A DNA stretch of 64,000 nucleotides from Balanoglossus misakiensis (GCA_040954595.2 CM082588.2:7920844-7984843); one strand, 5' to 3'. Counted from the first letter of the stretch, positions 7,967-64,000 are shown. Translations and numbers: made by a program. Notes: generated by a model from the sequence alone, not told the origin.

Positions 7967-9113
7967 ATGGCGACCGGTGGTGCATTTTTAACTACAGCCG
8001 AGAAGGTGAATCACGCTAGACTTTGTCGACTACTTATCGACGGTGGATCTAATGCGGTGAGATGTGTATTTGACAGCAAGATTCCACCTAATGTGCTTGC
8101 AAAAACTCTTAACAAGCATAAGAAGTCGTTAGAGAAACTACGAGTGTTGTATAAAGGACCTAAACCGGGTCCAAAGGTTATCAGTGATGGTCAGTGGGAT
8201 CTGTTATACCCAACCCAACCCAACCTTGTCAAGTCTGAAGACTTCGACATTACATTGCTCACAGTTTTATTACGCAATATCTGTGGCCTTCGAGTGACAC
8301 AGTCCTCCCCTGGTGTTGAAGCTGATGTGGCCCGAATAAAAGACTTCAGGAATAAACTTCAACACATGCCGGGCACAGCTGTCCCTGACAGCGAATTTCA
8401 ATCTTTCTGGGATGACATTAGTAAAGTATTGGTACGTCTTGGCGCTAAGCAGGGAGATATCGATCAGTTGAAGACTGCGAGTATGGACCTTGCTGAGACA
8501 GACAAATACGAACAAACTTTAAAGGACTGGCAAGAATCCGACAAAAAGTTCCTACAGCGTATAGAAGAGAAAATTGGCGATCAAACTCGTCAGCTTGGTC
8601 AGATATCAGAGACACAGAGTGACCATAGCAGTACTTTGGCTGATATCGAACAGAACCAACGGGAGAACCAACAAGAAACAACTCAACATCTTGGTCAGAT
8701 ATCAGAGACACAGAGTGACCATAGCAGTACTTTGGCTGATATCGAACAGAACCAACGGGAGAACCAACAAGAAACGACTCAACATCTGGGTCAGATATCA
8801 GAGAGACAGAGTGACCATAGCAGTACTTTGGCTGATATCGAACAGAAACAACGGGAGAACCAACAAGAAACGACTCAACATCTTGGTCAGATATCAGAGA
8901 CACAGAGTGGCCATAGCAGTACTTTGGCTGATATCGAACAGAACCAACAAGAAACGACTCAACATCTTGGTCAGATATCAGAGACACAGAGTGGCCATAG
9001 CAGTACTTTGGCTGATATCGAACAGAACCAACAAGAAACGATTCAACATCTGGTTGACATCAAAGAAGGCCTCAAGACTTCACATACCAGTGAGTCAAGA
9101 ACATGTGTTCCAG
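7967..9113 (+). CDS. NLR unit 2 exon 1, DZIP3-type HEPN + 5 coiled-coil repeats
   Basis: ATG in AAAGATGG; NHARLCRLLIDGG, FDITLLTVLLRNICGL, RNKLQH; donor CCAG|GTAATA. Confidence 0.88.
8597..9052 (+). repeat. 96/84-bp coding VNTR, pattern LLLSS
   Basis: GQISETQ..HSSTLADIEQN(QREN)QQETTQHL units. Confidence 0.95.
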
Positions 9114-9864
9114 GTAATAATTAAGATGGAGAAGTGGAATTCATTTCTATGGCTGAAATCTACGACATTATAGCTTTTTTATAATTTGTATAATTTTTGG
9201 TCAAACTTAATTGTTCCTTTATGGTCTCATAAATTATATGTGCAGATAAGAACTCATATTCCAACTTGGTCAGATGACCCTGAGGGCCAATCTGGGTTAG
9301 CTTATTTCACATCTTAAGTCTTACATCATAATCATACATTGCATAGACCGTCATAAGCAAGTTTTTTTGCAATATATGAGAATGGGAATAATCAGGAAAT
9401 CAAGATAATTACAATCCCACTTTTCTAGGGAGTCCAAAATCATGTTAGGTGGTGACATGTTGGGTTTTTGCCGCAAGTTATCTTAAAGGGACAAAGACTC
9501 TCTCTCACTTCCCCTTTTCCATTAATAATGTTTGATACATGACACTGTTTATGTTATTCTACATGTGGATATATATAGTGAATCAACGTTCGACTGCACA
9601 CAACTTCCACCCCACTTGTATGATATGAGAGCAACAAATCTCGCCAAAATGAATATGGTCGAATGTTGATTCACTATATATTCACAAGTATATAACATAA
9701 ACAGTGTCTTGTATCAAATATAATTAATGGAAAAAGGGCAACGAGAATGAGACTTTAATGTCCTTTTAATGGCGACATCATGGTTGCTTAGTTTGAAAAA
9801 AAGATTCTGTTGCACACCACCATTGAAAATAACTTTTTCTATAAATTCTCTCCTTTATCTCAAG

Positions 9865-9996
9865 ATGCTTCCTGTGCTTGGTGCAACTGTAAGAGTGATA
9901 ATCTCAAGAAGTGTACACGCTGTTGTGCAGTGATGTATTGTGGGAAAGACTGCCAGGAACAACACTGGAGGAAAGGTCACAGAGAAGAATGCAAAG
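9865..9996 (+). CDS. NLR unit 2 exon 2, zf-MYND with all eight canonical ligands
   Basis: CAWC..CTRC..YCGKDC..HREEC; AG/GT flanks, 132 nt. Confidence 0.82.
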
Positions 9997-10622
9997 GTAC
10001 AATTGATCCTTTTCTGAACTCCACATGACCCCACGAGATTTCACGTAGCTAAGCAATTTATATGGGAGGACATTCCCCTAGCACAGGGCAAACAATTAAC
10101 ACATGTCCCGCCATATTCAATGGAACAAACAATTTCCTTTTTTGTTAAACTCTGCACCTATTCTAATTTCTTAGCTACCAACCCGTTGCTATAGTAATTA
10201 ACCAAGTCTCAGGAGATTTCTCAATGAGCAGGAAATCATCATTGTTAAAGTCTGAACCTATATTCTAGTTACATACCAAGCTAGATAGTATGAAAATATT
10301 CACAAACACCTTTTAGTACATGTAAGAACTTATAAATAAGATACTGAAAATTTCCATGTTTCACGCATAATGTTTGTATTCTCATGTGCAGAGCTGTCTG
10401 TCAAAAAGCTGGGGGTAATCACGACATGACCCTGCCTATGTGGAACACAATATGTGGTTCATATATTACGGTAGTTATGGGTCATAATACTTCTAGTACA
10501 CCATATGTAACCCCTGACTACATTATACTTAGGTACAATGATGTTTTACAGCTTGTGAAAATAATAAACTAAATCTGTAATACAAAAGTCATACTATCAA
10601 TATTATAATTGTTTTTCTACAG

Positions 10623-13459
10623 ATACTTCTGCAGAGTTTGAGTGGCTTAAAGACTATCTCAAAGAATTGTACAGCCATGACTTTGACAAGTTCCAACCGT
10701 TGCCATGGAATGAAAACTTCTCACTCCATTTATCTGATGTCTATACCCGACTGAAGATGGTAGAGGTTGATGAAAGGGGTAAGATCATTGAGGACAATAA
10801 AGCAAAGAACACTGTAGTTCATGAAAGTGCAATATTTGAAGCAGATCGAAATGGAGTGAGACCACGTAGAATAAGAATTAAAGGACCTCCAGCTATTGGC
10901 AAGTCAATGTTTAGTAGAAAGCTGGCCTACAACTGGGCTTGTGGCGAATTAGAGCAATTTAAATTAGTCTTTCTGTTGGAAATGAGATATATGAGTCAAG
11001 AATCAATCATAGAAACCATATTTGATCAATTACTTCCTGATGATGCAGAAATTTCCAGAGATGAGCTTGACAAGGTTCTGAAAAGGAATGCAGATTCTGT
11101 GCTGTTCCTCTGTGATGGTTTGGATGAAATGTGTAAGGATTTCAAGGAAAGCCTTGATATTAGTCGGATTATTGCAAAGAAATTATTGCCAAGATGTACA
11201 GTAGCTATCACAACCAGGCCCCATGAATGTGACACACAGTTGAAAAACTGTGATTCACATTATTACATACAGGGCTTCACAAAGAGTGATTGTAGGGAAT
11301 ATATCATGAAGTACTTCAAGCATGAGTCTGAGACTGGTAAGAATTTGATCGCAAATTTAGAACAAAACCTTGAGTTTGAATGGTTGGATGATTTTCTTAG
11401 TAATCCCTTACATGTTTCATTTCTTTGTGTACTGTGGGAGGATCATCAAGATGGTGACCATTTCCCAACTAGAGTGACAGAGTTGTATTTTGAAGTATTG
11501 AAGTGTATTTTGAAGAGGTATTGTTCCAAGACTGGAGTCAGTCTTGATGAACAGGGAGAAGTACCCGTTGATATCATGGCTGATGTAAATAAACTGACTG
11601 CCATTGCTTATAATTATCTGAAACAGGGCAAAATACTCATAAATGAGGTAGATGTGATGCCAACATGGCTCTTGTCACTAGGGTTACTTGTGCGTGATTG
11701 CGGTGTATCTCGCACAAAACCAAAGAAAGTTTGTTTCTTCTGTCACAAAACTTGGCTGGAATATTTTGCTGCTTTACATATTGCTGAATGTGTGAAGGAC
11801 ACTGCTTCCTTTGATGAGTTTCAATTTCTATCTGACGACATTCACCGCAATTTCCAAGTCTTTGTATTTCTGACTGGCACTCTGAAGGAGAAAGCTGGTC
11901 CAGTATTTAAGGAAATTGGGATGGAGACGTGCAAGTCTGCAGATGATGCTGGCTTGGACAGCTATATAGCTTTCTTACATGAAAGTGTCAATTATGAAGC
12001 ATTTTTGAAATTCATAAAACCCATCCTTTATCAATTTAAGTGTTTCATTTGTGATCCTTTATTTTTTAGACCAAGACCTGTGGTTGTCAATTCTTTGTCT
12101 TCACCATCACCATATTTTCTAAGTGACGATTTGGATTTTCATACATTGTATTATGAAGATAGTTACTCGATGATAATCATTGATATGCTGAAGTATAAAC
12201 ACTCACATGAAAGTATACCCAAATTTCATAACAATCTTGAGATACATATCAACAATATGCAATCATCAGAGATTTCCTATTTAGTAGAGGCACTGGAGAA
12301 GAATCTTATTTCTCTTGAATAGTTTGTGTTGAATGTGACTCCATCCAGTGACAAGAATCTTCTTCAGTTGGCAAAAGCTATCAGAGAAACCAAAGCAGTA
12401 CAAAACATTCATATCATTGTAGGTGATGATAGGGACAATGTTGTTGACAGCACTCCCAATGAAAAATGTAAGCAAGGCACCTCAATTAAAGAAACAGATT
12501 TGACATCACGCACTTTAAGAAACCTTATCGAAAATGCTGAGAAAAATGAGCATATTGATTGTTTGTCATTGCATACATTTGACCGGTCTGACCATCAACG
12601 GGAGAATATTGATAACATTGTTCCATATAATTCATTGAAACAGACCAGGCACTTTCATAATATTGTGGAAACCGAAACAGGTGTAAATAGCGTATTACTG
12701 AAAGTTGCTGATATGCTTGAACACTGTCAATCTACCAAGGTTTGTCACGTGGTACTTGATGATAGTGTCAGATATTATGCCATTGAGGGCAGTACTGCAA
12801 GAGCTTTGTCAAAAGCTGTTCAAAATATCAGCAAAACAATTAATTCTCTTAGCTTGCTTGTCACATCAGAATTTTTAGATATACCGGAATATTTTGATGT
12901 TCAATCTGAATTTTTGCCTATATGTCATGTTGTGAATGAGATTTTACACATTTTGATGTCTAACACCACATTAGAGGATCTTAAGTTATTTATAGAGAAT
13001 GAAAATGTTGATGCTGTATTGAAGTTTATTCAATGTAATAAGTATGTCAAGTCACTGTCCTTTGCTCTGTATCAGTCTACAGTGAGTATAGACCATTTAT
13101 GTTCAGCTCTCTGTGCTGCTTTGAGTTCCAATACAACTCTGGAAAGCTTTGCGCTGCATTTGTGTGATGAGTCAGATGCAATGTATAGTAACACTGAACA
13201 TTCCACTGAGCATAAGTATATAAGTAAATTCATTTTACCAACACATAGATTATTGTGTGATGGAAAAACTGCATTGAAGACGATTTCATTTACTTTTCAA
13301 TCATCAAGTCCAGAACGCAGGGATGATATTGTCAATGTCATGACCGAGCATTTTAAAGGAAATGTTTCAGGGTCATACAAATACACTGTGAAGAGGCTGA
13401 TCAGGTGGGATCTTCAATGGTATATTCACGTTCTGGAAGTATCCATCAGTGGGCCCTAG
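10623..13459 (+). pseudogene. NLR unit 2 exon 3 (NACHT + LRR-like) interrupted by in-frame TAG at 12320-12322
   Basis: Paralogs have TGG (LEW) at this codon; frame stays open downstream to 13459. Confidence 0.85.
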
Positions 13460-14625
13460 AGGATTATAAATGCCACATTTGCATAAAATGCATTCTGCTA
13501 TATAGGGGAAACTCCATGAAAAATTGTAAACTTTAAATATTTTTTACATACACTTCCCTGGTAATGAAATATACCAGGTAACAGACTATACTATAGACAT
13601 CAATGCTTGCACAGTTAGACAAACTGACGAGGAATTTTCAACATATTGTATCCAGATGGAAATTTAATCAATTTACTAAGGACACACAAAGTGAACAAAT
13701 AAACAAAATTTGATTTGTTCACTTTGTAACAGTACTATAATCAAATATCTACCTCGAAGTGTTTTTCTTGATCCAAACTATGACAAATTCAAAAGGCTTA
13801 TGAGTTCCACAGATTTACGGGTATTATTGAATATTTGCAAGTATGTTTATAAAGCTATGGCTGTGAGAAGAACAGCCACTTATAGGATGAATAATATTAT
13901 TCAACTTTCTTTGTATTTGTGTAGTCAGCATTCCCTTTGTATTTGTGTGATGTATTACTTTATTTGAGAACTGGATGTTCTCCTTGCATTTGGACCTGAG
14001 GTCTTGAAACGCAATAAATTACTATTATTATTACTAAGGACACAATTTGTATGTAAGGAAATATGCAGAGAGTAGCAGAATATTTATTTAAACCAAGTGA
14101 CACACTTTTGTAAGACACATTCCTGTACAGATTCAATTTAGTTCTGTTTCTTACCTCTGTGCAAAAATCCCAACATTTGCTGGAAATTGTACGAGACTTA
14201 TCAAGTTTGGAGATGGCACAACAAGAGTTGATATTTCTTAATTCATTGTTATACATTTTTTTCTTTGCTTTATTTTTTTATTGAAATGTTTTGTCTTAAT
14301 TTTTAGAGGACCTGTAAATAAGACTTGTTCCAGTTGGTCTTTCTGGAATAAAATAAAGTCTGAGAAGAAACCAATTCAGAAAAATCCATTTGCTTTATTT
14401 GTTTTTTTTTAGGGGTTGACAAAGGAAATACACTTGTATTGCAAAATGGTATTTTTTTGGTGCACATTTAACGCAGATACAGTTGACCTTGGAAATCTTC
14501 ATTTGATTTCCAACAAATTTTTTCAAAAAACAACAGAAAATACTAGTTGTAGGTATTTGGATGTTTTCTCACACCATCTTTTAAAAATTCTCAAAAAAAA
14601 AGAGATACCATCGTATAAAACTGTG

Positions 14626-16404: not shown

Positions 16405-19400
16405 ATGAACAACAGTGAAGGTGGTTTGATACGCTGTGAGTTTGAAGCGAGGCGTGGATTTGATGAGATGAAGCTATCGGAGCAAGCGAAGAGAATTTAC
16501 ACCAGTCCAAACGCCGGTGGAAATTCAGTTGAGTCCGAAGTACTGAGGTAATATTTTTACATGCCATGGAAAAGTGAAAGAAATCCACGCACAAAATAAT
16601 TCTAAGCAGGATGTTGAGATTCCGCTGTGAATTGCCAGTCGAAATAAATAATTAGGGTTTCGAGACCCTCTGGTCTCGAAACCCTCTTGAAATCGTGTTG
16701 TTTTTTATTATTATTCTTCTTCCCACTCTTAAAAACAGCCGCTATTCGAAGACCGTTGCACCCAATGACTTGAAATTTGGCTCATAGGTAAATCTCAAAG
16801 CAAGTAATTTTCTGATCATGTAACTATGGCAACAGGTCACATGACCTGGCAGCCATCTTGGATTGAAAGTTTAAAATTGATCTCATTTGCATAAAAAATG
16901 ACGAATCAAAATTCTTTGAACAAACTTTGTGGACCATATGGCCAGGGTCCTATATGCAAAATTTCAATGTTCAAGTCTTTGCCGATTTTGAGGAGATGAT
17001 TTTTAAAGCATTATTTTTCATATTTTTCAAGACCATTGGACCCAGCCTTAGGCCTATACTTTCCATAGTTAAGCTATGGCCACCTAGGATCTTAGATTTA
17101 TGCCCAATATCTCAACATCCGCTGGGCTGATCAGCTTCAAATTTATTGTGCAGCTAGCCTACCTTCCAACAATCAGTTCCAACTGGAAAAAATAATATGA
17201 AAAATCGACCGATTTTTTTATATTAATTTTTTTATGAAATCTATACCTATACGTATTCCACTATAGTTAAGCTATGGCCAAGTCGTTTTGTAGAATTCTG
17301 GTTGGTGCAATAGTCCTATCGGCCAGTGTGCAGCATAGGACCACAAAAAGAAGCCAAATTAATTCAAGGGTCACCTGTGACACCTGCCTAACTCATTAAT
17401 TATGTGCATACCTAATTCGAGGCAAACCAATAGGGCTACAGGTCTGATTTTTGTTAGACATGGACCAGTATGGGGTCAAATTATCCCCCGAAATTTGGGG
17501 TGACCTTGAGTGACCTTTGACCTTCTTCCGCATATCTCGGCATCCAGAGCAGGTACAGCTTAGGTGTTTGGGTGGATGGTACCAAAATAAGAAGCCAAAT
17601 TCAAGGGTCACCTGTGACACCTGCCTAACTCATTAATTATGTGCATACCTAATTCCAGGCAAACCAATAGGGCTACAGGTCTGATTTTTGTTGGACATGA
17701 ACCAGTATGGGGTCAAATTATCCCCCAAAATTTGGGGTGACCTTGGGTGACCTTTGACCTACTTCCTCATATCTCGGCATTTACAGCAGGTACAGCTTAG
17801 GTGTTTGGGTGGATGGTATGAAAATAAGAAGCCAAAATTTAGGGTCACCTGTGATTCCTGCCTAACTCATTAATTATGTGCATACCTAATTCTAGGCGAA
17901 CCAAGGGGGCTACAGGTCTGGTGTTTGTTGGATATGTACCACTATGGGGTCAAATGTTTTTGCCCACATTTTGGGTGACCTTGGGTGACCTTTGACCTAC
18001 TTCCACATATCTCAGCATCTAGAGCAGGTACAGCTTAGGTGTTTGGGTGGATGGAACCAAAATAAGAAGCCCAAATTTAGGGTCACCTGTGACACCTGCC
18101 TTACTCATTAATTATGTGCATACCTAATTCCAGGCGAACTAACAGGACTACAGGTCTGGTGTTTGTTGGACATGGACCAGTATGGGGTCAAATTTTCCCC
18201 CCAAATTTCGGGTGACCTTGGGTAACCTTTGACCTACTTCCGCATATCTCGGCATCCACAGCAGGTACAGCTTAGGTGTTTGGGAGGATGGTACCAAAAT
18301 AATTAGCCAAAATTTAGGACCACCTGTGACACCTGCCTAACTATGTGCATAACTAAGTACACACAAACCAATAGGGCTAGATGTGTGGTTTTTATTGGAC
18401 ATGGACCAATATAGTGTCAAAATTTTCTGCTCATATTTAGGGTGACCTCACATGACGTTTGACCAACTTTCCCACATCCTACACCCTGACTAATTAAATA
18501 TGCACATATCTATCTCCAGGCGAACCAATAGGGCTAGCAGTGTCTCGAAACCCGCTTATTGCTGTTCACAGCTATATTTACAGCTATTTTTATTTTTTTG
18601 TCTGAAAAACTGCGTTTATTCGTTTTTTTACCTCCAAAACTTACGAAATGGAGACCACAATGAACTGAGTTCGATTGGATCGTGCAGCAACTAAATGTAT
18701 AGAAAACGGCTTGTTTTTAATGTTTCTAAAACGACCGTTTTGAGGGCTAAAAGTGGTCAAAATGGCAATTTTGTCTTAAGTGGAGTCAGTAAGACTTTTT
18801 TTCCGAATCAACACCAGTTTCAACTTAGAACGGACTTATTAGCTTCCCAAACCTTCTATACAAAATTCTGTTTAATCTACTTATATTTAATCTAATTTGA
18901 TTTATCTATTTCTAAGAAATGTATGTTTTCCAAAAGTAAATGATGACAACTTGAAATTGCAACAAACTTGTTAGTATCACCATTTATATCTATAATAGTA
19001 CAATTTATATTTCCCACTGTTTTACCCCCGACAGTTTTGAACTGCTGAAGCGCTGTTTTAGAGCAAGATTGCTGAAGACGGAGATGGAAGTCAATTATTT
19101 CCCATACGGCGGATCCATCACCGACTACACCTGCCATATGTTTGACACCAAATTGGGCGTGTCGGTCACCAGGGCGATGAAGTTCAAAGGTCAATACGAA
19201 ACGGAGGACGCGGAGAAACTACTGAGAAAGAAATTACAGGGTGAGAAACAAGAATTATTCAGATAGTAAGAAATGGTACGGAGTTTAAAAAAAAAACAAA
19301 AACAAACAATTATTTTACTACTAATCTAATTCTTCTCGTATCATTTTTAGGTATTACCATGGCAACGAGAAATTCCTTAGAATGCTGGTCCAAGCAAATA

Positions 19401-20051: not shown

Positions 20052-20106
20052 TGACGTCAAATGCCATGAATATATTCAGGCGAAAACGAGGTTGAGGGGA
20101 TTCCCC
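20052..20106 (+). promoter_or_regulatory. CRE and kappaB site upstream of unit 3
   Basis: TGACGTCA 20052-20059; GGGGATTCCCC 20096-20106. Confidence 0.55.
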
Positions 20107-20581: not shown

Positions 20582-22328
20582 ATGGCGACTGGTGGTGCCT
20601 TTATAACCACACCCGAAAAGGTGAATCACGCTAAACTTTGTCGACTACTTATTGACGGCGGATCTAAAGCGGTGAGATGTGTATTTGACAGCAAGATTCC
20701 ACCTAATCTGCTTGCGAAAACTCTTAACAAGCATAAGGCATCGTTAGAGAAACTACGAATGTCGTATAGAGGACCTAATCCAGGTCAAAAGGTTATCAGT
20801 GATGGTCAGTGGAATCTGTTATACCCAACCCAACCCAACCTTGTCAAGTCTCAATATTTCGACATTACATTGCTCACAGTTTTATTACGGAATATCTGTG
20901 GCCTTCGACATCCAAGAGATAGAGTGTGGACACATCCCTTCCCTGGTGATCTCCGTGTTGAAGCTGATGTGGCCCGAATAAGAGAGTTCAGGAATAGACT
21001 TCAACACATGACGGGCACAGCTGTCCCTGAGAGCGAATTTCAATCTTTCTGGGATGACATTAGTAAAGTACTGGTACGTCTTGGCGCTAAGCAGGGAGAT
21101 ATCAGTCAGTTGAAGACTGCGAGTATGGGCCTTGCAGAGACAGACAAATACGAACAAACTTTAAAGGACTGGGAAGAATCCGACATGGTGCTGGAAAAGT
21201 TCCTACAGCGTATGGAAGAGAAAATTGGTGATCAAACTCAACATCTTGGTCAGATATCAGAGACACAGACTGGCCATAGCAGTACTTTGGCTGATATCGA
21301 ACAGAACCAACGGGAGAACCAACAAGAAACGACTCAACATCTTGGTCAGATATCAGAGACACAGACTGGCCATAGCAGTACTTTGGCTGATATCGAACAG
21401 AACCAACGGGAGAACCAACAAGAAACGACTCAACATCTTGGTCAGATATCAGAGACACAGACTGGCCATAGCAGTACTTTGGCTGATATCGAACAGAACC
21501 AACGGGAGAACCAACAAGAAACGACTCAACATCTTGGTCAGATATCAGTGACACAGACTGGCCATAGCAGTACTTTGGCTGATATCGAACAGAACCAACA
21601 AGAAACGACTCAACATCTTGGTCAGATATCAGAGACACAGAGTGGCCATAGCAGTACTTTGGCTGATATCGAACAGAACCAACGGGAGAACCAACAAGAA
21701 ACGACTCAACATCTTGGTCAGATATCAGTGACACAGACTGGCCATAGCAGTACTTTGGCTGATATCGAACAGAACCAACGGGAGAACCAACAAGAAACGA
21801 CTCAACATCTTGGTCAGATATCAGAGACACAGAGTGGCCATAGCAGTACTTTGGCTGATATCGAACAGAACCAACAAGAAACGACTCAACATCTTGGTCA
21901 GATATCAGAGACACAGAGTGGCCATAGCAGTACTTTGGCTGATATCGAACAGAACCAACAAGAAACGACTCAACATCTTGGTCAGATATCAGAGACACAG
22001 ACTGGCCATAGCAGTACTTTGGCTGATATCGAACAGAACCAACGGGAGAACCAACAAGAAACGACTCAACATCTTGGTCAGATATCAGAGACACAGACTG
22101 GCCATAGCAGTACTTTGGCTGATATCGAACAGAACCAACGGGAGAACCAACAAGAAACGACTCAACATCTTGGTCAGATATCAGTGACACAGACTGGCCA
22201 TAGCAGTATTTTGGCTGATATCAAACAGAACCAACGGGAGAACCAACAAGAAATGATTCAACATCTGGTTGACATCAAAGAAGGCCCCAAGACTTCACAT
22301 ACCAGTGAGTCAAGAACATGTGTTCCAG
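20582..22328 (+). CDS. NLR unit 3 exon 1, HEPN + 11 coiled-coil repeats
   Basis: RNRLQH motif; donor CCAG|GTAATA. Confidence 0.9.
21248..22267 (+). repeat. 96/84-bp coding VNTR, pattern LLLSLLSSLLL
   Basis: Counted from translation. Confidence 0.95.
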
Positions 22329-23077: not shown

Positions 23078-23209
23078 ATGCTTCCTGTGCTTGGTGCAAC
23101 TGTAAGAGTGATAATCTCAAGAAGTTTATACGCTGTTGTGCACTGATGTATTGTGGGAAAGACTGCCAGAAACAACACTGGATGAAAGGTCACAGAGAAG
23201 AATGCAAAG
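23078..23209 (+). CDS. NLR unit 3 exon 2, zf-MYND
   Basis: As unit 1; splice sites conserved. Confidence 0.8.
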
Positions 23210-23815: not shown

Positions 23816-26670
23816 ATACTTCTGCAGGGTTTGAGTGGCTGAAAGACCATCTCAAAGAATTGTACAGCCATGACTTTGACAAGTTCCAACCGTTGCCATG
23901 GAGTGAAAACTTCTCACTTCATTTATCTGATGTCTATACCCGACTGAAGATGGTAGAGGTTGATGAAAGGGGTAAGATCAATAAGGACAATGAAGCAAAG
24001 AACACTGTAGTTCATGAGAGGGCAATATTTGAAGCAGATAGAAGAGGAGTGAGACCCCGTAGAATAAGAATTGAAGGACCTCCAGCTATTGGCAAGTCAA
24101 TGTTTTCTAGAAAGCTGGCCTACAACTGGGCTTGTGGAAAATTAGAGCAATTTAAATTAGTCTTTCTGTTGGAAATGAGATATTTGAGTAAAGAATCAAT
24201 CATAGAAACCATATTTGATCAATTACTTCCTGATGATGCAGAAATTTCCAGAGATGAGCTTGACAAGGTTCTGAAAAGGAATGCAGATTCTGTGCTGTTC
24301 CTTTGTGATGGTTTGGATGAAATGTGTAAGGATTTCAAGGAAAGTTCCGATATTAGTCGGATTATTGCAAAGAAATTATTGCCAAGATGTACAGTAGCTA
24401 TCACAACCAGGCCCCATGAATGTGACACACAGCTGAAAAACTGTGATTCACATTATCACATACAGGGCTTCACAGAGAGTGATTGTAGGGAATATATCAG
24501 GAAGTATTTCAAGAATAAGTGTGAGACTGGTAAGAATTTGATCACAAATTTAGAACAAAACCTCCAGTTTGAGTGGTTGGATGATTTCCTTAGTAATCCC
24601 TTACATGTTTCATTTCTTTGTGTACTGTGGGAGGATCATCAAGATGGTGACCATTTCCCAACTAGAGTGACAGAGTTGTATTTTGAAGTATTGAAGTGTA
24701 TTTTGAAGAGGTATTGTTCCAAGACTGGCGTCAGTCTTGATGAACAAGAGGAAGTACCCATTGATATCATGGCTGATGTAAATAAACTGGCTGCCATTGC
24801 TTATAATTATCTGAAACAGAGAAAACTACTCATAAATGAGGTAGATGTGATGCCAACATGGCTCTTGTCACTAGGGTTACTTGTGCGTGATTGCGGTGTA
24901 TCTCGCACAAAACCAAAGAAAGTTTGTTTCTTTTGTCACAAAACTTGGCTGGAATATTTTGCTTCTTTACATATTGCTGAATGTGTGAAGGATACTGCTT
25001 CCTTTGATGAGTTTCAATTTCTATATAGTAACAATTATGATGGCAACAATGACCAAGTCTTTGTATTTCTGACTGGCACTCTGAAGGAGAAAGCTGGTCC
25101 AGTATTTAAGGGGATTGGGATGGCGATGTGCAAGTCTACAGATGCTGATGGCCTTGAGTTACATGTAAGAATGAAAAGATATATAGCTATCTTACGTGAA
25201 AGTGTCAATTATCAAGCATTTTGGAAATTCATAGAACCCATCCTTTATCAATTTAAGTATTTCATTTGTAATTCTTCATTAAATTTTACAGCAAGATCTA
25301 TGGTTGTCAATTCTGTGTCTTCACCATCACCATACTGTCTAAGTGACGATTTGAATTTTCATAGATTATATTATGAACACAGTTACTTGATGATAATCAT
25401 TGATATACTGAAGTATGAACACTCATGTGAAAGTAGACCCAAATTTAATAACAATCTCGAGTTAGATACAAACAAAATGCAATCATCAGCGATATCGTAT
25501 TTGGTAGAGGCATTGGAGAAGAATCTTATTTCTCTTGAATGGCTTGTGTTGTATGTGACTCTATCTAGTGACAAGAATCTGCTTCAGTTGGCAAAAGCTA
25601 TCAGAGAAACCAAAGCGGTACAAAACTTTTATATCAATGTACGGATTGATAGGGATAATGTTGTTGACAGCACTCCCAATGAGAAATGTAAGCAAGGCAC
25701 CTCAAATAAAGAAACAGATTTGACATCATGCACTTTAAGAAACCTTATCGAAAATGCTGTGAAAAATAAGCATATTGATTGTTTGTCATTGCATACAGTT
25801 AACGAGTATGACCATCAATGGGAGGAGATTGATAACATTGTTCCATATAAGTCATTGAAACAGGCCAGGTACTTTCATAATGTTGTGGAAACCAAAACAG
25901 GTGTAAATAGCGTATTATTGAAAGTTGCTGATATGCTTGAACACTGTCAATCTACCAAGGTTTGTCATTTTGTACTTTTTGATAGTGTCAGATATTCTGC
26001 CATTGAGAACAAGACTGCAAGAGCATTGTTCAAAGCTGTTCAAAATATCCGCAAAATAAAATCTCTTTGCTTGTTTGTCGCATCAGTATGTTCAAAGATA
26101 CCTTTTATAGTTCCATCTGGATTTTTGCCAATATCTGATGTTGTGAATGAGATTTTACATATTTTGAGGTCTAACACCACATTACAGGATCTTAAGTTAT
26201 TTATAGAGAATGAAAATGTTGATGCTGTATCGAAGTTTATTCAATGTAATAGGTATGTCAAGTCACTGTCCTTTGGTCTGTATCAGTTCAGAATGAGCAT
26301 AGACCATTTATATTCAGCTCTCTGTGCTGCTTTGAGTTCCAATACAACTCTGGAAAGCTTTGTGCTGCATTTATGTTATGAGTTTCAATTACTTCATAGT
26401 AACCCTGAATTTTCCACTGTGCGTAAGTATATTAGTCAATTGATTTTACCAACACATAGGTTATTGTGTGATGGAAAATCTGCATTGAAGACTATTTCAT
26501 TAACTTTTCCATCATCAAGTCCAGAACGCAGTGATTATATTGTCAATGTCATGACCGAATATTTTAAAGGAAATGTTTCAGGGTCATACCAATACACTGT
26601 GAAGAGGCTGACCGTGTCAGAGTTAACAGGGTATATTCACGTTCTGAAAGTATCGATCAGTGAACCCTAG
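23816..26670 (+). CDS. NLR unit 3 exon 3, NACHT + LRR-like (spliced product ~1577 aa)
   Basis: Intact frame; NACHT motifs conserved. Confidence 0.92.
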
Positions 26671-27077: not shown

Positions 27078-27620
27078 GGCTGTGAGAAGAACAGCCACTT
27101 ATAGGATGAATAATATTGTTCAACTTTCTTTGTATTTGTGTAGTCAGCATTCACTTTGTATTTGTGTGATGTATTACTTTAGTTGAAAACTGGATGTTCT
27201 CCTTGCATTTGGACCTGAGGTCTTCAAACGCAATAAATTACTATTATTATTACTGGCTGTGAGAAGAGCAGCCACTTGCCACTCATAGAGTGTATAATAT
27301 TGTTCAACTTTCTTTGTATTTGTGTAGTCAGCATTTCACTTTGTATTTGTGTGATGTATTACTTTATTTGAGAACTGGATGTTCTCCTTGCATTTGGACC
27401 TGAGGTCTTGAAACGCAATAAATTACTATTATTATTACTGGCTGTGAGAAGAGCAGCCACTTGCCACTCATAGAGTGTATAATATTGTTCAACTTTCTTT
27501 GTATTTGTGTAGTCAGCATTCATTTTGTATTTGTGTGATGTATTACTTTAGTTGAGAACTGGATGTTCTCCTTGCATTTGGACCTGAGATCTTGAAACGC
27601 AATAAATTACTATAATTATT
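27078..27620 (+). repeat. ~185-bp 3' repeat, 3 copies
   Basis: Same unit as 4472-5750. Confidence 0.9.
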
Positions 27621-28221
27621 ATGAAGGACACAATTTGTATGTAAGGAAATATGCAGAGAGTAGCAGAATATTTATTTAAACCAAGTGACACACTTTTGTA
27701 AGACACATTCCTGTACAGATTCAATTTAGTTCTGTTTCTTACCTCTGTGCAAAAATGCCAACATTTTCTGGAAATTGTACGATACTTATCAAGTTTGGAG
27801 ATGGCACAAGAGTTTATATATCTTAACTCATTGTTATGCATTTTTTTCTTTGCTTTATCTTTTCATTGAAATGTTTTGTCTTAATTTTTATAGGACCTGT
27901 AAATAAGACTTGTTCCAGTTGGTCTTTCTGGAAATCAATAAAGTCTGAGGAGACACCATTTCTGAAAAATCCATTTGCTTTATTTGGTCTAAACTACAGT
28001 TTTTTGGGGGTTGACAAATGAAATACACTTGTATTGCAAAATGGTATTTTTTGGTGCACATTCAACGCAGAAACAGTTGACCTTGGAAATCTTTATTTGT
28101 TTTCCAACAAATTTTCTCAAAAAACAACAGAAAATACTAGTTGTAGGTATTTGGATTTGTTTTCTTGCGCCATCTCTTAAAAATTCTCAAAAAAAGAGAG
28201 ATACCATCGTATGAAACTGTG

Positions 28222-44036: not shown

Positions 44037-44168
44037 ATGCTTCCTGTGCTTGGTGCAACTGTAAGAGTGATAATCTCAAGAAGTTTATACGCTGTTGTGC
44101 AGTGATGTATTGTGGGAAAGATTGCCAGAAACAACACTGGATGAAAGGTCACAGAGAAGAATGCAAAG
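44037..44168 (+). CDS. NLR unit 5 exon 2, zf-MYND
   Basis: As unit 1; preceded by the short (~140 nt) intron form. Confidence 0.8.
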
Positions 44169-48050: not shown

Positions 48051-48410
48051 GGCTGTGAGAAGAACAGCCACTTATAGGATGAATAATATTGTTCAACTTT
48101 CTTTGTATTTGTGTAGTCAGCATTCACTTTGTATTTGTGTGATGTATTACTTTATTTGAGAACTGGATGTTCTCCTTGCATTTGGACCTGAGGTCTTGAA
48201 ACCAGGAAATTACTATAATTATTACTGGCTGTGAGAAGAGCAGCCACTTGCCACTCATAGAGTGTATAATATTGTTCAACTTTCTTTGTATTTGTGTAGT
48301 CAGCATTCAATTTGTATTTGTGTGATGTATTAATTTATTTGAGAACTGGAAGTTCTCCTTGCATTTGGACCTGAGGTCTTCAAACGCAATAAATTACTAT
48401 TATTATTACT
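48051..48410 (+). repeat. ~185-bp 3' repeat, 2 copies
   Basis: Same unit. Confidence 0.88.
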
Positions 48411-50743: not shown

Positions 50744-51926
50744 ATGGCGACCGGTGGTGCATTTTTAACTACAGCCGAGAAGGTGAATCACGCTAGACTT
50801 TGTCGACTACTTATCGACGGTGGATCTAAAGCGGTGAGATGTGTATTTGACAACAATATTCCACCTAATGTGCTTGCAAACACCCTTAACAAGCATAAGG
50901 TGTCGTTAGAGAAACTACGAATGTCGTATAAAGGACCTAATCCAGGTCAAAAGGTTATCAGTGATGGTCAGTGGGATCTGTTATACCCAACCCAACCCAA
51001 CCATGTCAAGTCTCAATATTTCGACATTACATTGCTCACAGTTTTATTACGGAATATCTGTGGCCTTCGACATCCAAGAGATAGAGTATGGACACATCCC
51101 TCCCCTGGTGATCTCCGTGTTGAAGCTGATGTGGCCCGAATAAGAGAGTTCAGGAATAGACTACAACACATGACGGGCACAGCTGTCCCTGACAGCCAAT
51201 TTCAATCTTTCTGGGATGACATTAGTAAAGTATTGGTACGTCTTGGCGCTAAGCAGGGAGATATCGATCAGTTGAAGACTGCGAGTATGGACCTTGCTGA
51301 GACAGACAAATACGAACAAACTTTAAAGCACTGGGAAGAATCTGACATGGTGCTGGAAAAGTTCCTACAGCGTATGGAAGAGAAAATTGGTGATCAAACT
51401 CGTCAGCTTGGTCAGATATCAGAGACACAGAGTGGCCATAGCAGTACTTTGGCTGATATCGAACAGAACCAACGGGAGAACCAACAAGAAACGACTCAAC
51501 ATCTGGGTCAGATATCAGAGACACAGAGTGGCCATAGCAGTACTTTGGCTGATATCGAACAGAACCAACGGGAGAACCAACAAGAAACGACTCAACATCT
51601 TGGTCAGATATCAGAGACACAGAGTGACCATAGCAGTACTTTGGCGGATATCGAACAGAACCAACAAGAAACGACTCAACATCTTGGTCAGATATCAGAG
51701 ACACAGAGTGACCATAGCAGTACTTTGACTGATATCGAACAGAACCAACGGGAGAACCAACAAGAAACGACTCAACATCTTGGTCAGATATCAGAGACAC
51801 AGAGTGGCCATAGCAGTACTTTGGCTGATATCGAACAGAACCAACAAGAAACGATTCAACATCTGGTTGACATCAAAGAAGGCCTCAAGACTTCACATAC
51901 CAGTGAGTCAAGAACATGTGTTCCAG
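50744..51926 (+). CDS. NLR unit 6 exon 1, HEPN + 5 coiled-coil repeats
   Basis: RNRLQH motif; donor CCAG|GTAATA. Confidence 0.9.
51410..51865 (+). repeat. 96/84-bp coding VNTR, pattern LLSLS
   Basis: Counted from translation. Confidence 0.95.
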
Positions 51927-52704
51927 GTAATAATTAAGATGGAGAAGTTGAATGCATTTCTATGGCTGAAATCTACGACATTATAGCTTTTTTTATAACT
52001 TGCATAATTTTTGGTCAAACTTAATTTTTCCGTCAATTGGTCTCATAATTTATATGTGCAGATAATATTCTTATTCCAATTTGGTCAGCTGGCTTGGGCT
52101 GACCCAGGGCCAATCTGGGGTAGCTTGTTTCTCATCTCAAGTCTTACATCATAATCATACATTGCATAGACCATCAGAAGCAAGTTTTATACTTATTTTT
52201 GCAATATATGAGAATGGGAATAATCAGGAAATCAAGATAATTACAATCCCACTTTTCTGGGGGAGTCCAAAATCATGTAAGGTGGTGACATGTTGGTTTT
52301 TTGCTGCCAGTTATCTCAAAGGGACAAAGATTCTCTCTCACTGTCCCTTTTCCATTAATAATGTTTGATACATGACACTGTTTATGTTATTCTACATGTA
52401 GATACATGTGTATATAGTGAATCAACGTTCGACTGCACACAACTTCCATCCCACTTGTATGATATGAGAGCAACAAATCTCACCAAAATGGTCGAATGTT
52501 GATTCACTATATATTCAAATGTAGAATAACATAAACAGTGTTTTGTATCAAACATAATTAATGGAAAAAGGGCAGCGAGAAAGAGACTTTATGTCCCTTT
52601 AATGGATTGGCGACATCATGGTTGCTTAGTTTTAAAAAAAAAGAATCTGTTGTACACCACCATTAAAAATAACTTTTTCTATAAATTCTCTCCTTTATCT
52701 CAAG

Positions 52705-52836
52705 ATACTTCCTGTGCTTGGTGCAACTGTAAGAGTGATAATCTCAAGAAGTTTATACGCTGTTGTGCAGTGATGTATTGTGGGAAAGACTGTCAGAAAC
52801 AACACTGGATGAAAGGTCACAGAGAAGAATGCAAAG
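52705..52836 (+). CDS. NLR unit 6 exon 2, zf-MYND
   Basis: As unit 1. Confidence 0.8.
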
Positions 52837-53485: not shown

Positions 53486-56319
53486 ATACTTCTGCAGGGT
53501 TTGAGTGGCTTAAAGACTATCTCAAAGAATTGTACAGCCATGACTTTGACAAGTTCCAACCGTTGCCATGGAATGAAAACTTCTCACTCCATTTATCTGA
53601 TGTGTATACCCGACTGAAGATGGTAGAGGTTTATGAAAGGGGTAAGATCATTGATGACAATGAAGAAAATGACACTGTTGTTCATGAGAGTGCAATATTT
53701 GAAGCAGATAGAAAAGGAGTGAGACCATGTAGAATAAGAATTGAAGGACCTCCAGCTATTGGCAAGTCAATGTTTAGTAGAAAACTGGCCTACAACTGGG
53801 CTTGTGGAAAATTAGAGCAATTTAAATTAGTCTTTCTGTTGGAAATGAGATATATGAGTAAAGAATCAATCATAGAAACCATATTTGATCAATTACTTCC
53901 TGATGATGCAGAAATTTCCAGAGATGAGCTTGACAAGGTTCTGAAAAGGAATGCAGATTCTGTGCTGTTCCTCTGTGATGGTTTGGATGAAATGTGTAAG
54001 GATTTCAAGGAAAGTTCCAATATAAGTCAGATTATTGCAAAGAAATTATTGCCAAGATGTACAGTAGCTATCACAACCAGGCCCCATGAATGTGACACAC
54101 AGCTGAAAAACTGTGATTCACATTATCACATACAGGGCTTCACAATGAGTGATTGTGTGGAATATATCAGGAAGTACTTCAAGCATGAGTCTGAGACTGG
54201 TATAAAATTAATCCGAAATTTAGTACAAAATCTCCGGTTTAAATGGATGGATGCTTTCCTTAGTAATCCCTTACATGTTTCATTTCTTTGTGTACTGTGG
54301 GAGGATCATCAAGATGGTGACCATTTCCCAACTAGAGTGACAGAGTTGTATTTTGAAGTATTGCAGTGTATTTTGAAGAGGTATTGTTCCAAGACTGGAG
54401 TCAGTCTTGATGAACAGGGAGAAGTACCCATTGATATCATGGCTGATGTAAATAAACTGGCTGCCATTGCTTATAATTATCTGAAACAGGGAAAAATACT
54501 CATAAATGAGGTAGATGTGATGCCAACATGGCTCTTGTCACTAGGGTTACTTGTGCGTGATTGCGGTGTATCTCGCACAAAACCAAAGAAAGTTTGTTTC
54601 TTCTGTCACAAAACTTGGCTGGAATATTTTGCTGCTTTACATATTGCTGAATGTGTGAAGGATACTGCTTCCTTTGATGAGTTTCAATTTCTATCTGACG
54701 ACATTGACCGCAATTTCCAAGTCTTTGTATTTCTGACTGGGACTCTGAAGGAGACAGCTGGTCCAGTATTTAAGGAAATTGGGATGCAGACGTGCAAGTC
54801 TGCAGATGATGCTAACTTAATAGGCAAAATGAACCGCTATATAGATTTCTTACTTCAAAGTGTCAATTATCATGCATTTTTGAAATTCATAGAACCCATC
54901 CTTTATCAATTAACGCGTTTCATTTGTAATACTTTATTTTATCTTAGAATAAGACCTTCTAGGGTTGTCAATTCTTTGTCTTCACCATCACCATCACCAT
55001 ATATTCTAAGTGACGATGTGAATTTTCATACATTGTGTTATGGAGATAGGTACTTGATGATAATCATTGATATGCTGAAGTATAAACACTCACATGAAAG
55101 TAGACCTAAATGTGATAACAATCTCCAGTTAGATATAAACAAAATGAAATCATCACAGATTTCCTATTTGGCAGAGGCACTGGAGAAGAATCTTATTTCT
55201 CTTGAATGGCTTGTGTTGTATGTGACTCTATCCAGTGGCAAGGATCTGCTTCAGTTGGCAAAAGCTATCAGAGAAACCAATGCGGTACAAAACATTCATA
55301 TCGTTGTAAGTGATGATAGGGATAATGTTGTTGACAGCACTCCCAATGAAAAATGTAAGCAAGGCACCTCAAATAAAGAAACAGATTTGACATCACGCAC
55401 TTTAAGAAACCTTATTGAAAATGCTGTGAAAAATGAGCATATTGATTGTTTGTCATTGCTTACAGTTGACCTGTCTGACGATCAATGGGAGAATATTGAA
55501 AACATTGTTCCATATAAGTCATTGAAACAGGCCAGGCACTTTCATAATTTTGTGGAAACCGAAACAGGTGTAAATAGCGTATTATTGAAAGTTGCTGATA
55601 TGCTTGAACACTGTCAATCTACCAAGGTTTGTCATTTTGTACTTTTTGAGAATTTCACATATTCTGTCATTGAGGGCAGTACTGCAAGAGCTTTGTTCAA
55701 AGCTGTTCAAAATATCAGCAAAACAATTAAATCTCTTAGCTTGATTGTCACATCAGAATTTGAAAGTATACATTTATCTGATGTTGTGAATAAGATTTTA
55801 CACATTTTGATATATAACACCACATTAGAGGATCTTAAGTTATTTATAGAGAATGACAATGTTGATGCTGTATTGAAGTTTATTCAATGTAATAAGTATG
55901 TCAAGTCACTGTCCTTTGCTCTGTATCAGCCCGGAATGAGCATAGACCATTTATGTTCAGCTCTCTGTGCTGCTTTGAGTTCCAATACAACTCTGGAAAG
56001 CTTTGCGCTGGAGTTTTGTTATGAGTTTGATATAGTTCATAGTAACCCTGAACTTTCCACTGAGCATAAGTATATTAGTCAATTGATTTTACCAACACAT
56101 AGATTATTGTGTGATGGAAAAACTGCATTGAAGACGATTTTATTTACTTTTCCATCATTTAGTCCAGAACGCAGGGATGATATTGTCAATGTCATGACCG
56201 AGTATTTTAAAGGAAATGTTTCAGGGTCATACCAATACCCGTACACTGTGAAGAGGTCGATCAATTTTTTTTATGACATGTATATTCACACTCTTAAAGT
56301 ATCCATCAGTGGACCCTAG
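53486..56319 (+). CDS. NLR unit 6 exon 3, NACHT + LRR-like (spliced product ~1382 aa)
   Basis: Intact frame; NACHT motifs conserved. Confidence 0.92.
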
Positions 56320-56717: not shown

Positions 56718-57455
56718 GGCTGTGAGAAGAACAGCCACTTATAGGATGAATAATATTGTTCAACTTTCTTTGTATTTGTGTAGTCAGCATTCACTTTGTA
56801 TTTGTGTGATGTATTACTTTATTTGAGAACTGGATGTTCTCCTTGCATTTGGACCTGAGGTCTTCAAACGCAATAAATTATTATTATATTTACTGGCTGT
56901 GAGAAGAGCAGCCACTTGCCACTCATAGAGTGTATAATATTGTTCAACTTTCTTTGTATTTGTGTAGTCAGCATAATTCACTTTGTATTTGTGTGATGTA
57001 TTACTTTATTTGAGAACTGGATGTTCTCCTTGCATTTGGACATGAGGTCTTGAAACGCAATAAATTACTATTATTATTACTGGCTGTGAGAAGAGCAGCC
57101 ACTTGCCACTCATAGAGTGTATAATATTGTTCAACTTTCTTTGTATTTGTGTAGTCAGCATAATTCACTTTGTATTTGTGTGATGTATTACTTTATTTGA
57201 GAACTGGATGTTCTCCTTGCATTTGGACCTGAGGTCTTCAAACGCAATAAATTATTATTATATTTACTGGCTGTGAGAAGAGCAGCCACTTGCCACTCAT
57301 AGAGTGTATAATATTGTTCAACTTTCTTTGTATTTGTGTAGTCAGCATAATTCACTTTGTATTTGTGTGATGTATTACTTTATTTGAGAACTGGATGTTC
57401 TCCTTGCATTTGGACATGAGGTCTTCAAACGCAATAAATTACTATTATTATTACT
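56718..57455 (+). repeat. ~185-bp 3' repeat, 4 copies
   Basis: Same unit. Confidence 0.9.
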
Positions 57456-61450: not shown

Positions 61451-61983
61451 TTCTTAAAACCCGGCGACGGTTGATTTCAGGGGCGATTTCAAACACTCAG
61501 TATGGTTGCAAATAATGAGAAAGACTTTTAATCAGACTCGTAATCGCACAGCGAAATTTGATAATGTTATTATAAAATATAATAGTTATATTATATCTGT
61601 ACACGTACGTAAGGACGAAATTGTTTTCTGAAGACATGAATTTGAAAGACATGCGTTTGTTTTATTATATTAAATTGTATAAAACGTGGTATTATGAATC
61701 TATATTTCTAAGATCTTTTTCAACTTCTTTCATTTATTCGATTTAGGATTTTGTCGAAACCACAAGCTCAGTCCCAAATTCGAAACTCACCTCACTACCA
61801 AAAACACGCTCAAGGCAAGCATGCACGCAAAAAGTATTGAAATTATTTGTAAGAACAAAAAAAGCATCGAAAACACATTAAGTATTGAGATTTAAAAATC
61901 ACCAAGCGACTAGTGGGCTAGTCTACATTTTGACCTATCTGACGTCAAATGCCATGAATATATTCAGGCGAAAACGAGGTTGA

Positions 61984-61994
61984 GGGGATTCCCC
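61984..61994 (+). promoter_or_regulatory. kappaB site upstream of unit 7
   Basis: GGGGATTCCCC. Confidence 0.5.
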
Positions 61995-62469
61995 TTTGAT
62001 TCCCCGGTTGCGGACAACCATATATTTATTTTTGTTTATATGTACTTGCATACTAGTATTTTGCGCCAATGTCAGTGGCCTTCACATTTGAAATCGTAGC
62101 CCCCAAACATCGATTTGTTGGACTTTTCTACCCATATGATATAAAGTTACGAGAAACTTCATCTGATTGTATCATTCTAACCACTTAACTCTAGCACTCA
62201 AAATATTTCAAGTGAGTTTCACATATACATATACATGGAACGGTAAGGCCACTGTGCCAAGCCTCTGTTAGTCGTAGTTAAGAGTTCAGACTGCGTGTTT
62301 GTGAGTTGCAGACAGAGTTGGAATTTGCGCCTGGTTTTTAGCAAATGTGAACATTTTAGTGTATCACCAACACTGTTCGAGGTAATCTTGGAAGTGGAGA
62401 TCTTCATATATCTGCGCCCAAGTGCTTCCAGAACTGGAGTCAAGTTGTGTTTTGTGATATCGTACAAAG

Positions 62470-64000
62470 ATGGCGACTGGTGGTGCCTTTATAACCACAC
62501 CCGAAAAGGTGAATCACGCTAAACTTTGTCGACTACTTATTGACGGCGGATCTAAAGCGGTGAGATGTGTATTTGACAGCAAGATTCCACCTAATCTGCT
62601 TGCGAAAACTCTTAACAAGCATAAGGCATCGTTAGAGAAACTACGAATGTCGTATAGAGGACCTAATCCAGGTCAAAAGGTTATCAGTGTTGGCCAGTGG
62701 GATCTGTTATACCCAACCCAACCCAACCTTGTCAAGTCTCAATATTTCGACATTACATTGCTCACAGTTTTATTACGGAATATCTGTGGCCTTCGACATC
62801 CAAGAGATAGAGTGTGGACACATCCCTTCCCTGGTGATCTCCGTGTTGAAGCTGATGTGGCCCGAATAAGAGAGTTCAGGAATAGACTTCAACACATGAC
62901 GGGCACAGCTGTCCCTGAGAGCGAATTTCAATCTTTCTGGGATGACATTAGTAAAGTACTGGTACGTCTTGGCGCTAAGCAGGGAGATATCAGTCAGTTG
63001 AAGACTGCGAGTATGGGCCTTGCAGAGACAGACAAATACGAACAAACTTTAAAGGACTGGGAAGAATCCGACATGGTGCTGGAAAAGTTCCTACAGCGTA
63101 TGGAAGAGAAAATTGGTGATCAAACTCAACATCTTGGTCAGATATCAGAGACACAGACTGGCCATAGCAGTACTTTGGCTGATATCGAACAGAACCAACG
63201 GGAGAACCAACAAGAAACGACTCAACATCTTGGTCAGATATCAGAGACACAGACTGGCCATAGCAGTACTTTGGCTGATATCGAACAGAACCAACGGGAG
63301 AACCAACAAGAAACGATTCAACATCTTGGTCAGATATCAGAGACACAGAGTGGCCATAGCAGTACTTTGGCTGATATCGAACAGAACCAACGGGAGAACC
63401 AACAAGAAACGACTCAACATCTTGGTCAGATATCAGAGACACAGAGTGACCATAGCAGTACTTTGGCTGATATCGAACAGAACCAACAAGAAACGACTCA
63501 ACATCTTGGTCAGATATCAGAGACACAGACTGGCCATAGCAGTACTTTGGCTGATATCGAACAGAACCAACGGGAGAACCAACAAGAAACGACTCAACAT
63601 CTTGGTCAGATATCAGTGACACAGACTGGCCATAGCAGTACTTTGGCTGATATCGAACAGAACCAACAAGAAACGACTCAACATCTTGGTCAGATATCAG
63701 AGACACAGAGTGGCCATAGCAGTACTTTGGCTGATATCGAACAGAACCAACGGGAGAACCAACAAGAAACGACTCAACATCTTGGTCAGATATCAGTGAC
63801 ACAGACTGGCCATAGCAGTACTTTGGCTGATATCGAACAGAACCAACGGGAGAACCAACAAGAAACGACTCAACATCTTGGTCAGATATCAGAGACACAG
63901 AGTGGCCATAGCAGTACTTTGGCTGATATCGAACAGAACCAACAAGAAACGACTCAACATCTTGGTCAGATATCAGAGACACAGAGTGGCCATAGCAGTA
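62470..64000 (+). CDS. NLR unit 7 exon 1, HEPN + at least 9 repeats (runs off window end)
   Basis: ATG at 62470, MATGGAFITTPEKVNHAK, near-identical to unit 3; absent from the ORF track because there is no stop in the window. Confidence 0.9.
   Translation, partial: MATGGAFITTPEKVNHAKLCRLLIDGGSKAVRCVFDSKIPPNLLAKTLNKHKASLEKLRMSYRGPNPGQKVISVGQWDLLYPTQPNLVKSQYFDITLLTVLLRNICGLRHPRDRVWTHPFPGDLRVEADVARIREFRNRLQHMTGTAVPESEFQSFWDDISKVLVRLGAKQGDISQLKTASMGLAETDKYEQTLKDWEESDMVLEKFLQRMEEKIGDQTQHLGQISETQTGHSSTLADIEQNQRENQQETTQHLGQISETQTGHSSTLADIEQNQRENQQETIQHLGQISETQSGHSSTLADIEQNQRENQQETTQHLGQISETQSDHSSTLADIEQNQQETTQHLGQISETQTGHSSTLADIEQNQRENQQETTQHLGQISVTQTGHSSTLADIEQNQQETTQHLGQISETQSGHSSTLADIEQNQRENQQETTQHLGQISVTQTGHSSTLADIEQNQRENQQETTQHLGQISETQSGHSSTLADIEQNQQETTQHLGQISETQSGHSS
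63136..64000 (+). repeat. 96/84-bp coding VNTR, pattern LLLSLSLLS then truncated
   Basis: Read from sequence. Confidence 0.93.

Follow-up and report, generated by a model that had tools for sequence, protein, structure and literature searches.

Receptors that combine a HEPN_DZIP3 domain with a NACHT domain are known in tandem expansions from cnidarians and the pearl oyster (PMC3710099, PMC8260672, PMC9646362, PMC10236652). Passages in two of these reports place HEPN-NACHT receptors among the commonest NOD-like receptors (NLRs) of cnidarians and bivalves, and treat their ribonuclease (RNase) role as a prediction (PMC8260672, PMC9646362). Here, we analyzed a 64,000-nucleotide stretch of DNA from Balanoglossus misakiensis (GCA_040954595.2 CM082588.2:7920844-7984843; hereafter, the window), which is filled by seven related genes, designated U1 to U7, that lie in tandem on the + strand at a spacing of ~9-13 kb. 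They encode receptors with the predicted architecture HEPN-[stalk]-MYND-NACHT-LRR-like, in which LRR denotes leucine-rich repeat; the three exons encode HEPN and the stalk, the MYND finger, and NACHT and the C-terminus, respectively. The genes resemble the DZIP3/hRUL138-like HEPN-NACHT NLRs of cnidarians and bivalves, as these are portrayed in passages of the four reports (PMC3710099, PMC8260672, PMC9646362, PMC10236652), in their N-terminal HEPN_DZIP3 domain with an Rx4H motif, NACHT domain, probable repeat-type C-terminus, and tandem expansion with copy variation. Unlike those receptors as described there, the window genes place a stalk of 152-340 amino acids (aa), built from two kinds of repeat unit, and a zf-MYND exon between HEPN and NACHT. 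Neither feature comes up in those passages, and the word 'coiled' is absent from three of the four reports. On balance, we favor a reading in which a minisatellite within coding DNA gives rise to a weak, polar-core coiled-coil stalk that separates HEPN from the MYND-NACHT body, and in which the order of its units drifts through ordinary repeat turnover.

Parsing of every unit revealed just two sizes among the 46 complete ones, exactly 84 bp (14 short units, S) and 96 bp (32 long units, L), which lie in frame and encode 28 and 32 aa, respectively. The units are ordered LLLSS in U2 (8591-9046, + strand; 152 residues), LLLSLLSSLLL in U3 (21242-22261; 340 residues), SLLLLLLS in U4 (30602-31345; 248 residues), LLLLSL in U5 (43246-43809; 188 residues), LLSLS in U6 (51404-51859; 152 residues), and LLLSLSLLS... 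in U7 (63130-64000, where the window ends; at least 276 residues), with 5-11 units per array. The core of the S unit is L2-I5-Q9-H12-L16-I19-Q23-T26, with a spacing of 3-4-3-4. The L unit holds four residues more, and the spacing is unbroken in all 46 units except by these insertions. A prediction made earlier from the sequence alone (the original prediction) had given the same six strings, which our parsing reproduced exactly, together with the same range of lengths, the heptad arithmetic, and the addition of four residues, which it gave as QREN. It had also noted a terminal GQISETL heptad, which we found in U1, U4, and U5 only. In DNA, L corresponds to S plus a 12-bp near-duplicate flanked by the 9-bp direct repeat AGAACCAAC, which would provide a ready substrate for slippage.

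The proposal in the original prediction that the repeat forms a polar-core coiled-coil stalk is likely right. The register passes from a canonical flank, in which L, M, or I occupies core positions, into the repeat and then out into LVDIKEGL. According to passages in two reports, QxxH, which occurs within the repeat core, is one of the motifs named for the hydrophilic cores of stalks in trimeric autotransporters, where four-residue insertions are also found (PMC2373917, PMC6839023). AlphaFold2, run with 81 sequences, modeled HEPN mostly with a predicted local distance difference test score (pLDDT) above 90, followed by a confident helix at residues 184-260 (blocks of 74-93) that comprises the flank and about the first 1.3 units. 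With 6 sequences, the program returned a single helix at residues 190-382 with low confidence (mean 47). Apart from unit number, indels in the stalk measure 7, 7, 7, 4, 3, and 5 residues in an exact-match reading, so that three of six are seven-mers, compared with 0 of 23 indels elsewhere in the genes (Fisher p=0.005). MAFFT aligns the U5 flank as 12+7, which leaves two seven-residue indels among five in the stalk and a p of about 0.03 calculated by hand.

Related receptors also carry repeats in this position. Among 81 homologs whose linkers could be anchored (of 83), 15 have repeats of their own at the same place in the linker, with periods of 14, 21, 28, 35, or 42 residues in 11, 36 in three, and 58 in one. 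All eight heptad-period linkers that were examined share the layout hxxhxxxQxx[T/H/D]. In a quick HEPN tree, which omits P0049 and P0072 for want of an anchor, the 11 heptad-period homologs form one clade apart from the window genes, the period-36 Dendronephthya group, and the period-58 protein. In this tree, repeat-bearing stalks thus occupy four separate places, two of them heptad-based. Independent stalk repeats of 36 and 58 residues occur in the HEPN-NACHT proteins P0024, P0040, P0051, P0113, and P0121 (Dendronephthya) and P0061.

A number of observations weigh against the coiled-coil reading or the receptor model built on it, and the first of them are shared with its closest competitor. 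In that explanation, which is possible but distinctly less probable, most of the repeat is a disordered spacer rich in Q, S, and T that follows a short true coil (the flank and perhaps one unit), and the heptad pattern is inherited from the duplicated piece; any duplicated 28-residue piece of coil would automatically yield a heptad repeat. AlphaFold2 run with 81 sequences assigns a pLDDT below 50 to most of residues 282-393, and thus to most of the later units, and models them partly as coil; this stretch may simply lack aligned homologs, and the confident helix runs through a first unit that is nearly identical to the later ones. The unit holds two glycines and many Ser and Thr residues, and its helix propensity is below that of the flank (0.49-0.50 versus 0.43, on the scale used); every unit length is compatible with a coil. 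The codon alleles of the repeat, which number 21 nonsynonymous to 5 synonymous, fit neutral site counts (ratio 1.0-1.25, p=0.82), conservation at its core positions does not clearly exceed that elsewhere in the unit, and its lack of proline is not significant (P=0.25). The separate clade of heptad-multiple stalks with the same core layout argues for a coil; however, its 11 members represent a single clade that was recovered with a query in which those residues also abound, and whose composition favors such matches, and the other two repeat-bearing groups show periods of 36 and 58. The indel comparison is post hoc and hinges on the alignment of the U5 flank, and 21-bp internal homology could produce seven-residue indels without selection. 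Three further points concern the genes themselves. The premature stop in U2 may mean that part of the array is decaying, which would also yield neutral counts; the splice joint between exon A (HEPN and stalk) and the MYND exon was not seen in the contigs aligned to U6; and RNase activity and NLR activation are inferred from knowledge of the family.

Prediction of a three-copy complex of U6 residues 170-388 scored 0.19 against a mark of 0.32, with controls not folded, and speaks neither for nor against a coil. Foldseek returned zero matches in the PDB at E<=0.001, a PDB sequence search with the stalk gave only weak compositional matches to other coiled coils (best E=0.036), and an Atlas search with the stalk gave clusters without names at scores of 0.85 or less. 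We attribute a Pfam XhlA match, whose 24.5 bits fall below the cut-off of 34.7, to generic similarity among coils. We also considered an amyloid or RHIM-type motif and set it aside; the repeat is internal and lacks an IQIG-like core. Leu at position a together with Ile at d resembles tetramers. The polar core motifs of the stalk recall trimers, and two, three, or four strands may all be in play.

If the repeat is a coil, does the order of its units carry information? The original prediction described the strings as a binary code or barcode, unique in each paralog, within a stalk that changes faster than anything else. The six strings do differ from one another, but six random L/S strings with the same copy numbers all differ in 93% of 100,000 draws (probability 0.93), and the codon alleles of the repeat look neutral. 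Both S and L occur on Val/Thr, Asp, and plain 5' single-nucleotide polymorphism (SNP) backgrounds, indicating that the indel recombines or recurs. Over the first 66 bp of 45 units, divergence is 2.4% within and 3.3% between paralogs, a slight excess of similarity inside arrays that was matched in 0 of 2000 permutations. Divergence between paralogs is 5-8% in HEPN (13 of 15 pairs), 3-5% in the NACHT core, and 9-12.5% in the C-terminus. Because units differ less between paralogs than do HEPN and the C-terminus, the repeat appears to be shared and homogenized rather than paralog-specific, and the claim that it outpaces everything else is not supported.

Copy number provides a second comparison. 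A non-coding 185-bp repeat follows U1 to U6 in 7 (4472-5754, unstranded), 1 (13859-14035), 3 (27078-27621), 2 (36195-36555), 2 (48051-48410), and 4 (56718-57455) copies, and serves as an internal control for neutral copy-number change. It varies at least as much as the coding repeat, which indicates that copies can be gained or lost in U1 to U6 without any protein function being involved. We also determined pairwise ratios of nonsynonymous to synonymous change per site (pN/pS), which are counts from non-independent pairs made without a codon model. The ratio is 0.64 in HEPN, 0.43 in the nucleotide-binding domain (the NACHT core), and 1.65 in the C-terminal region, where hypervariable stretches are patchy; this region is a likelier seat of specificity than the stalk.

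The original prediction held that the flanks of U3 and U7 are nearly identical whereas their repeats differ. The first part is correct, with 1 difference in 2008 upstream bases, but the difference in the readable repeat comes down to one 180-bp (L+S) indel and one substitution. Units 3-8 of U3 match units 5-10 of U7 at 499 of 499 bases, and the extra L+S block, which differs by two bases from counterparts in U1 and U6, is consistent with transfer between arrays. The HEPN exons of the pair differ at only three bases, all within 12 bases (20802-20813) and reminiscent of a short conversion tract; one of them changes a conserved-looking Asp to Val in U7. Five of six arrays begin with LL. U2 and U5 differ by 1.7% in HEPN, where they share a six-residue deletion, and by 10.2% in the C-terminus; being close at one end and distant at the other, the genes look mosaic. 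Gain or loss of a block between U3 and U7 and recombination between variants on shared SNP backgrounds are what a minisatellite would leave behind, and neither strings that differ beyond chance nor paralog-specific units, the marks of a paralog barcode, were found. The L/S order thus likely drifts by ordinary minisatellite turnover.

The string is probably not a code, and we consider improbable the explanation in which L/S order sets register, so that only matching stalks pair and hetero-oligomers among paralogs or alleles are restricted. The idea retains a small share of our belief because, downstream of a single L/S mismatch, the core would be displaced by one layer and polar layers would face hydrophobic ones. 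In other coils, it is buried polar layers that set the register, and the slight excess of similarity within arrays points the same way. Against these stand the chance-level uniqueness of the strings, the LL start common to most arrays, the identical 499-bp block of U3 and U7, and the homogenization of units across paralogs; in addition, a four-residue loop-out or a register slip in so nearly perfect a repeat would be expected to restore pairing. Just as improbable is an elaborated form in which the code rewrites itself: slippage at the 9-bp direct repeat would toggle stutters, only matched stalks would zip, each receptor would activate only its own RNase partners, and the MYND finger would be bait for viral proteins with proline motifs.

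Slightly more doubtful again is stalk length as a selected dial, in which more units would provide more binding energy or reach and thereby set the RNase activation threshold of each paralog. Stalk lengths calculated from the rise per residue do span about 23-50 nm, and repeat expansion of the stalk at four separate places in the HEPN tree would suit a dial. However, the non-coding control varies over a range (1-7 copies) at least as wide as the 5-11 copies of the stalk. An L unit twists ~37 degrees less than an S unit, and U2 and U6 are equal in length and in computed net twist, which means that any distance or rotation code would be degenerate. We therefore rejected rotation tuning by the stalk, a suggestion of the original prediction that is weak also in that a short probable linker and the MYND finger intervene before NACHT. 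Least probable is that the array differences are assembly artefacts or that U3 and U7 represent two alleles of a single locus that were left uncollapsed. The two are almost identical upstream, but every array carries units marked by SNPs of its own, all of them in frame and of exactly 84 or 96 bp. The genes that precede U3 and U7 are about 9% divergent, and a public run that may be from the source sample yields short-read contigs with both kinds of unit (with a loose end at 51837).

The finger is encoded by a 132-bp symmetric exon of phase 1-1 that lies between the stalk and NACHT exons in all six readable copies (456-587 in U1, 9865-9996 in U2, 23078-23209 in U3, 32195-32326 in U4, 44037-44168 in U5, and 52705-52836 in U6, all on the + strand). 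It was found when public contigs were aligned to U6, through a contig joint within a supposed intron. Pieces from one run (X3) map to exons and to a high-copy element, and one contig, at a depth of 8, crosses the GT..AG joint from MYND to NACHT; the same run has zero cover across 51776-52250, which proves nothing. The U6 copy scores 35.4 bits against zf-MYND (Pfam PF01753; cut-off 22.7), the other five copies are nearly identical, and the exon is likely an insert acquired by exon shuffling. The stalk does lie between HEPN and NACHT, as originally predicted, but the intervening exon means that it would connect HEPN with MYND, by way of what is probably a short linker, rather than directly with NACHT. 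Tyr, Gln (+6), and Trp (+10) are kept in all six copies; the equivalent residues bind proline motifs in the MYND domain of BS69, as stated in part of one report (PMC4742278). At one expected zinc-ligand position, U2 has Cys (C-x2-C, KCTRC), whereas the other five copies, which have spare cysteines close by, have Phe (KFIRC). Two further residues are common to U1 and U2 (EQHWR). None of 103 homologs matched a strict MYND pattern, nor did any of 26 that could be anchored (of 29), although gene models could miss an exon this small.

The remaining domains are those of an NLR with a predicted RNase. HEPN_DZIP3 scores 117-127 bits against a Pfam cut-off of 27 in the three exon A copies scanned, and the Rx4H motif (RN[K/R]LQH) is intact in all six HEPN domains. 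The three full exons scanned for NACHT score 97-101 bits with Pfam, and Walker A (GPPAIGKS) and Walker B (LCDGLDE) are present in all six copies. The C-terminus has zero Pfam LRR matches and zero PDB sequence matches; its top Atlas matches are NLR LRR/HD2 clusters with scores of only 0.75-0.78, which makes the LRR assignment weak. The closest relatives are hemichordate proteins, with 49-51% identity over the HEPN exon (49% for Ptychodera flava) and 37% over 94% of the NACHT exon. P0105, from Glandiceps, carries the same HEPN followed by a PF00643 finger, which we take to be of B-box type, and a coil in place of NACHT; this HEPN has evidently been shuffled onto other zinc-finger modules in hemichordates.

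Exon A, which encodes HEPN and the stalk, spans 7967-9113 in U2 (RNKLQH motif), 20582-22328 in U3, 29963-31433 in U4, 42661-43897 in U5 (flank 19 aa shorter than that of U6), 50744-51926 in U6, and 62470-64000 in U7, which is cut by the end of the window. U1 begins within the stalk, and its exon A remnant (1-312) retains the last units (L, S), the GQISETL heptad, and the linker. The NACHT and LRR-like exon, also on the + strand, occupies 1223-4065 in U1, 10623-13459 in U2, 23816-26670 in U3, 32943-35788 in U4, 44805-47638 in U5, and 53486-56319 in U6. When joined, the three exons have matching phases and give open frames of 1382-1577 aa in four of the five complete copies (U3-U6). U2 has one premature stop, a TAG at 12320-12322 where the other copies have Trp, that would remove most of the C-terminal sensor region and may reflect a pseudogene, a truncated receptor, or an assembly error. 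Intron 1 holds a long inverted repeat with 82-nt arms that are 84% complementary (52318-52600 and equivalents in U2, U3, and U4); it resembles a miniature inverted-repeat transposable element, has very high contig depth, and lies within a stretch of ~600 bp missing in U1 and U5. A 237-bp tandem repeat of 4.7 copies (17340-18477) is found upstream of U3 only, with none found upstream of U7.

It is tempting to speculate how such a receptor might act. The RNase site of HEPN domains requires a dimer. Binding of an invader ligand would fall to the LRR-like C-terminus, which evolves fast, and ligand-bound receptors would oligomerize through NACHT. The resulting crowding could zip the weak stalks along a core in which hydrophobic L/I layers alternate with polar Q/H, Q/N, and Q/T layers, and the zipped stalks would bring HEPN domains together in pairs that cleave RNA as an active RNase. 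A weak core would limit spontaneous assembly, and the MYND finger might recruit a partner or act as bait. Selection would maintain the reading frame and heptad register rather than length or L/S order, so that 5-11 units are tolerated, while the L/S patterns would arise from slippage at the 9-bp direct repeat together with unequal exchange, both within paralogs and between them.

In the literature searched, which consisted of listings and selected passages of mainly open-access main texts, we found no description of repeat-expanded stalks in HEPN-NACHT receptors or of a MYND finger in NLRs; the supplementary domain tables of three reports (PMC10236652, PMC8260672, PMC9646362) could list MYND-NACHT combinations. 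If our reading is correct, the link from HEPN to NACHT is a coiled-coil-type stalk that tolerates large, heptad-quantized changes in length and has expanded by repetition in several separate lineages. U2 and U6, equal in length and different in order, together with the series of 5-11 units, are natural reagents for asking whether NLR activation depends on stalk length or stutter order.

The window genes can be compared with several known systems. Their HEPN and NACHT exons find their best matches in hemichordate NLRs (Ptychodera flava, Glandiceps, and Saccoglossus). Hemichordate NACHT relatives mostly carry PF01335, presumably the death effector domain, and HEPN-NACHT proteins of Ptychodera have a short, non-repetitive coil and no MYND in place of the repeat stalk and finger. 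In HEPN-NACHT-WD40 proteins that group among cnidarian sequences (P0002, P0010, P0052, and others), the stalk is likewise expanded by repeats in this position, with periods that are multiples of seven and with hxxhxxxQxx[T/H/D] cores; these proteins belong to a separate HEPN-tree clade and differ in unit sequence, in their WD40 sensor, and in that no MYND motif was found in them. Trimeric autotransporter adhesins, as portrayed in parts of two reports, share QxxH-type hydrophilic layers and four-residue insertions that give hendecads (PMC2373917, PMC6839023), but these are surface trimers with heads and membrane anchors, and the likeness is a working analogy with no homology shown. A coiled coil followed by a MYND finger, as is likely here, also describes the CC-MYND module of BS69/ZMYND11, whose Tyr, Gln, and Trp are those kept in the window copies, according to part of one report (PMC4742278); BS69 is a chromatin protein, whereas the module here lies inside an NLR and, in five of six copies, has Phe where a zinc ligand is expected. 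Minisatellite variant repeat (MVR) maps, from what part of one report sets out, likewise consist of array-specific strings of interspersed variant units altered by block duplication and transfer of repeat groups (PMC2674676). In contrast to those maps, the window comparison is between paralogs, and its two variants are set apart by a 12-bp indel that lies in coding DNA and preserves the frame. The binary L/S pattern is real and most likely ordinary minisatellite behavior; relative to known HEPN-NLRs, what appears new and worth keeping is the recurrent expansion of the stalk by repeats and the presence of a MYND exon.

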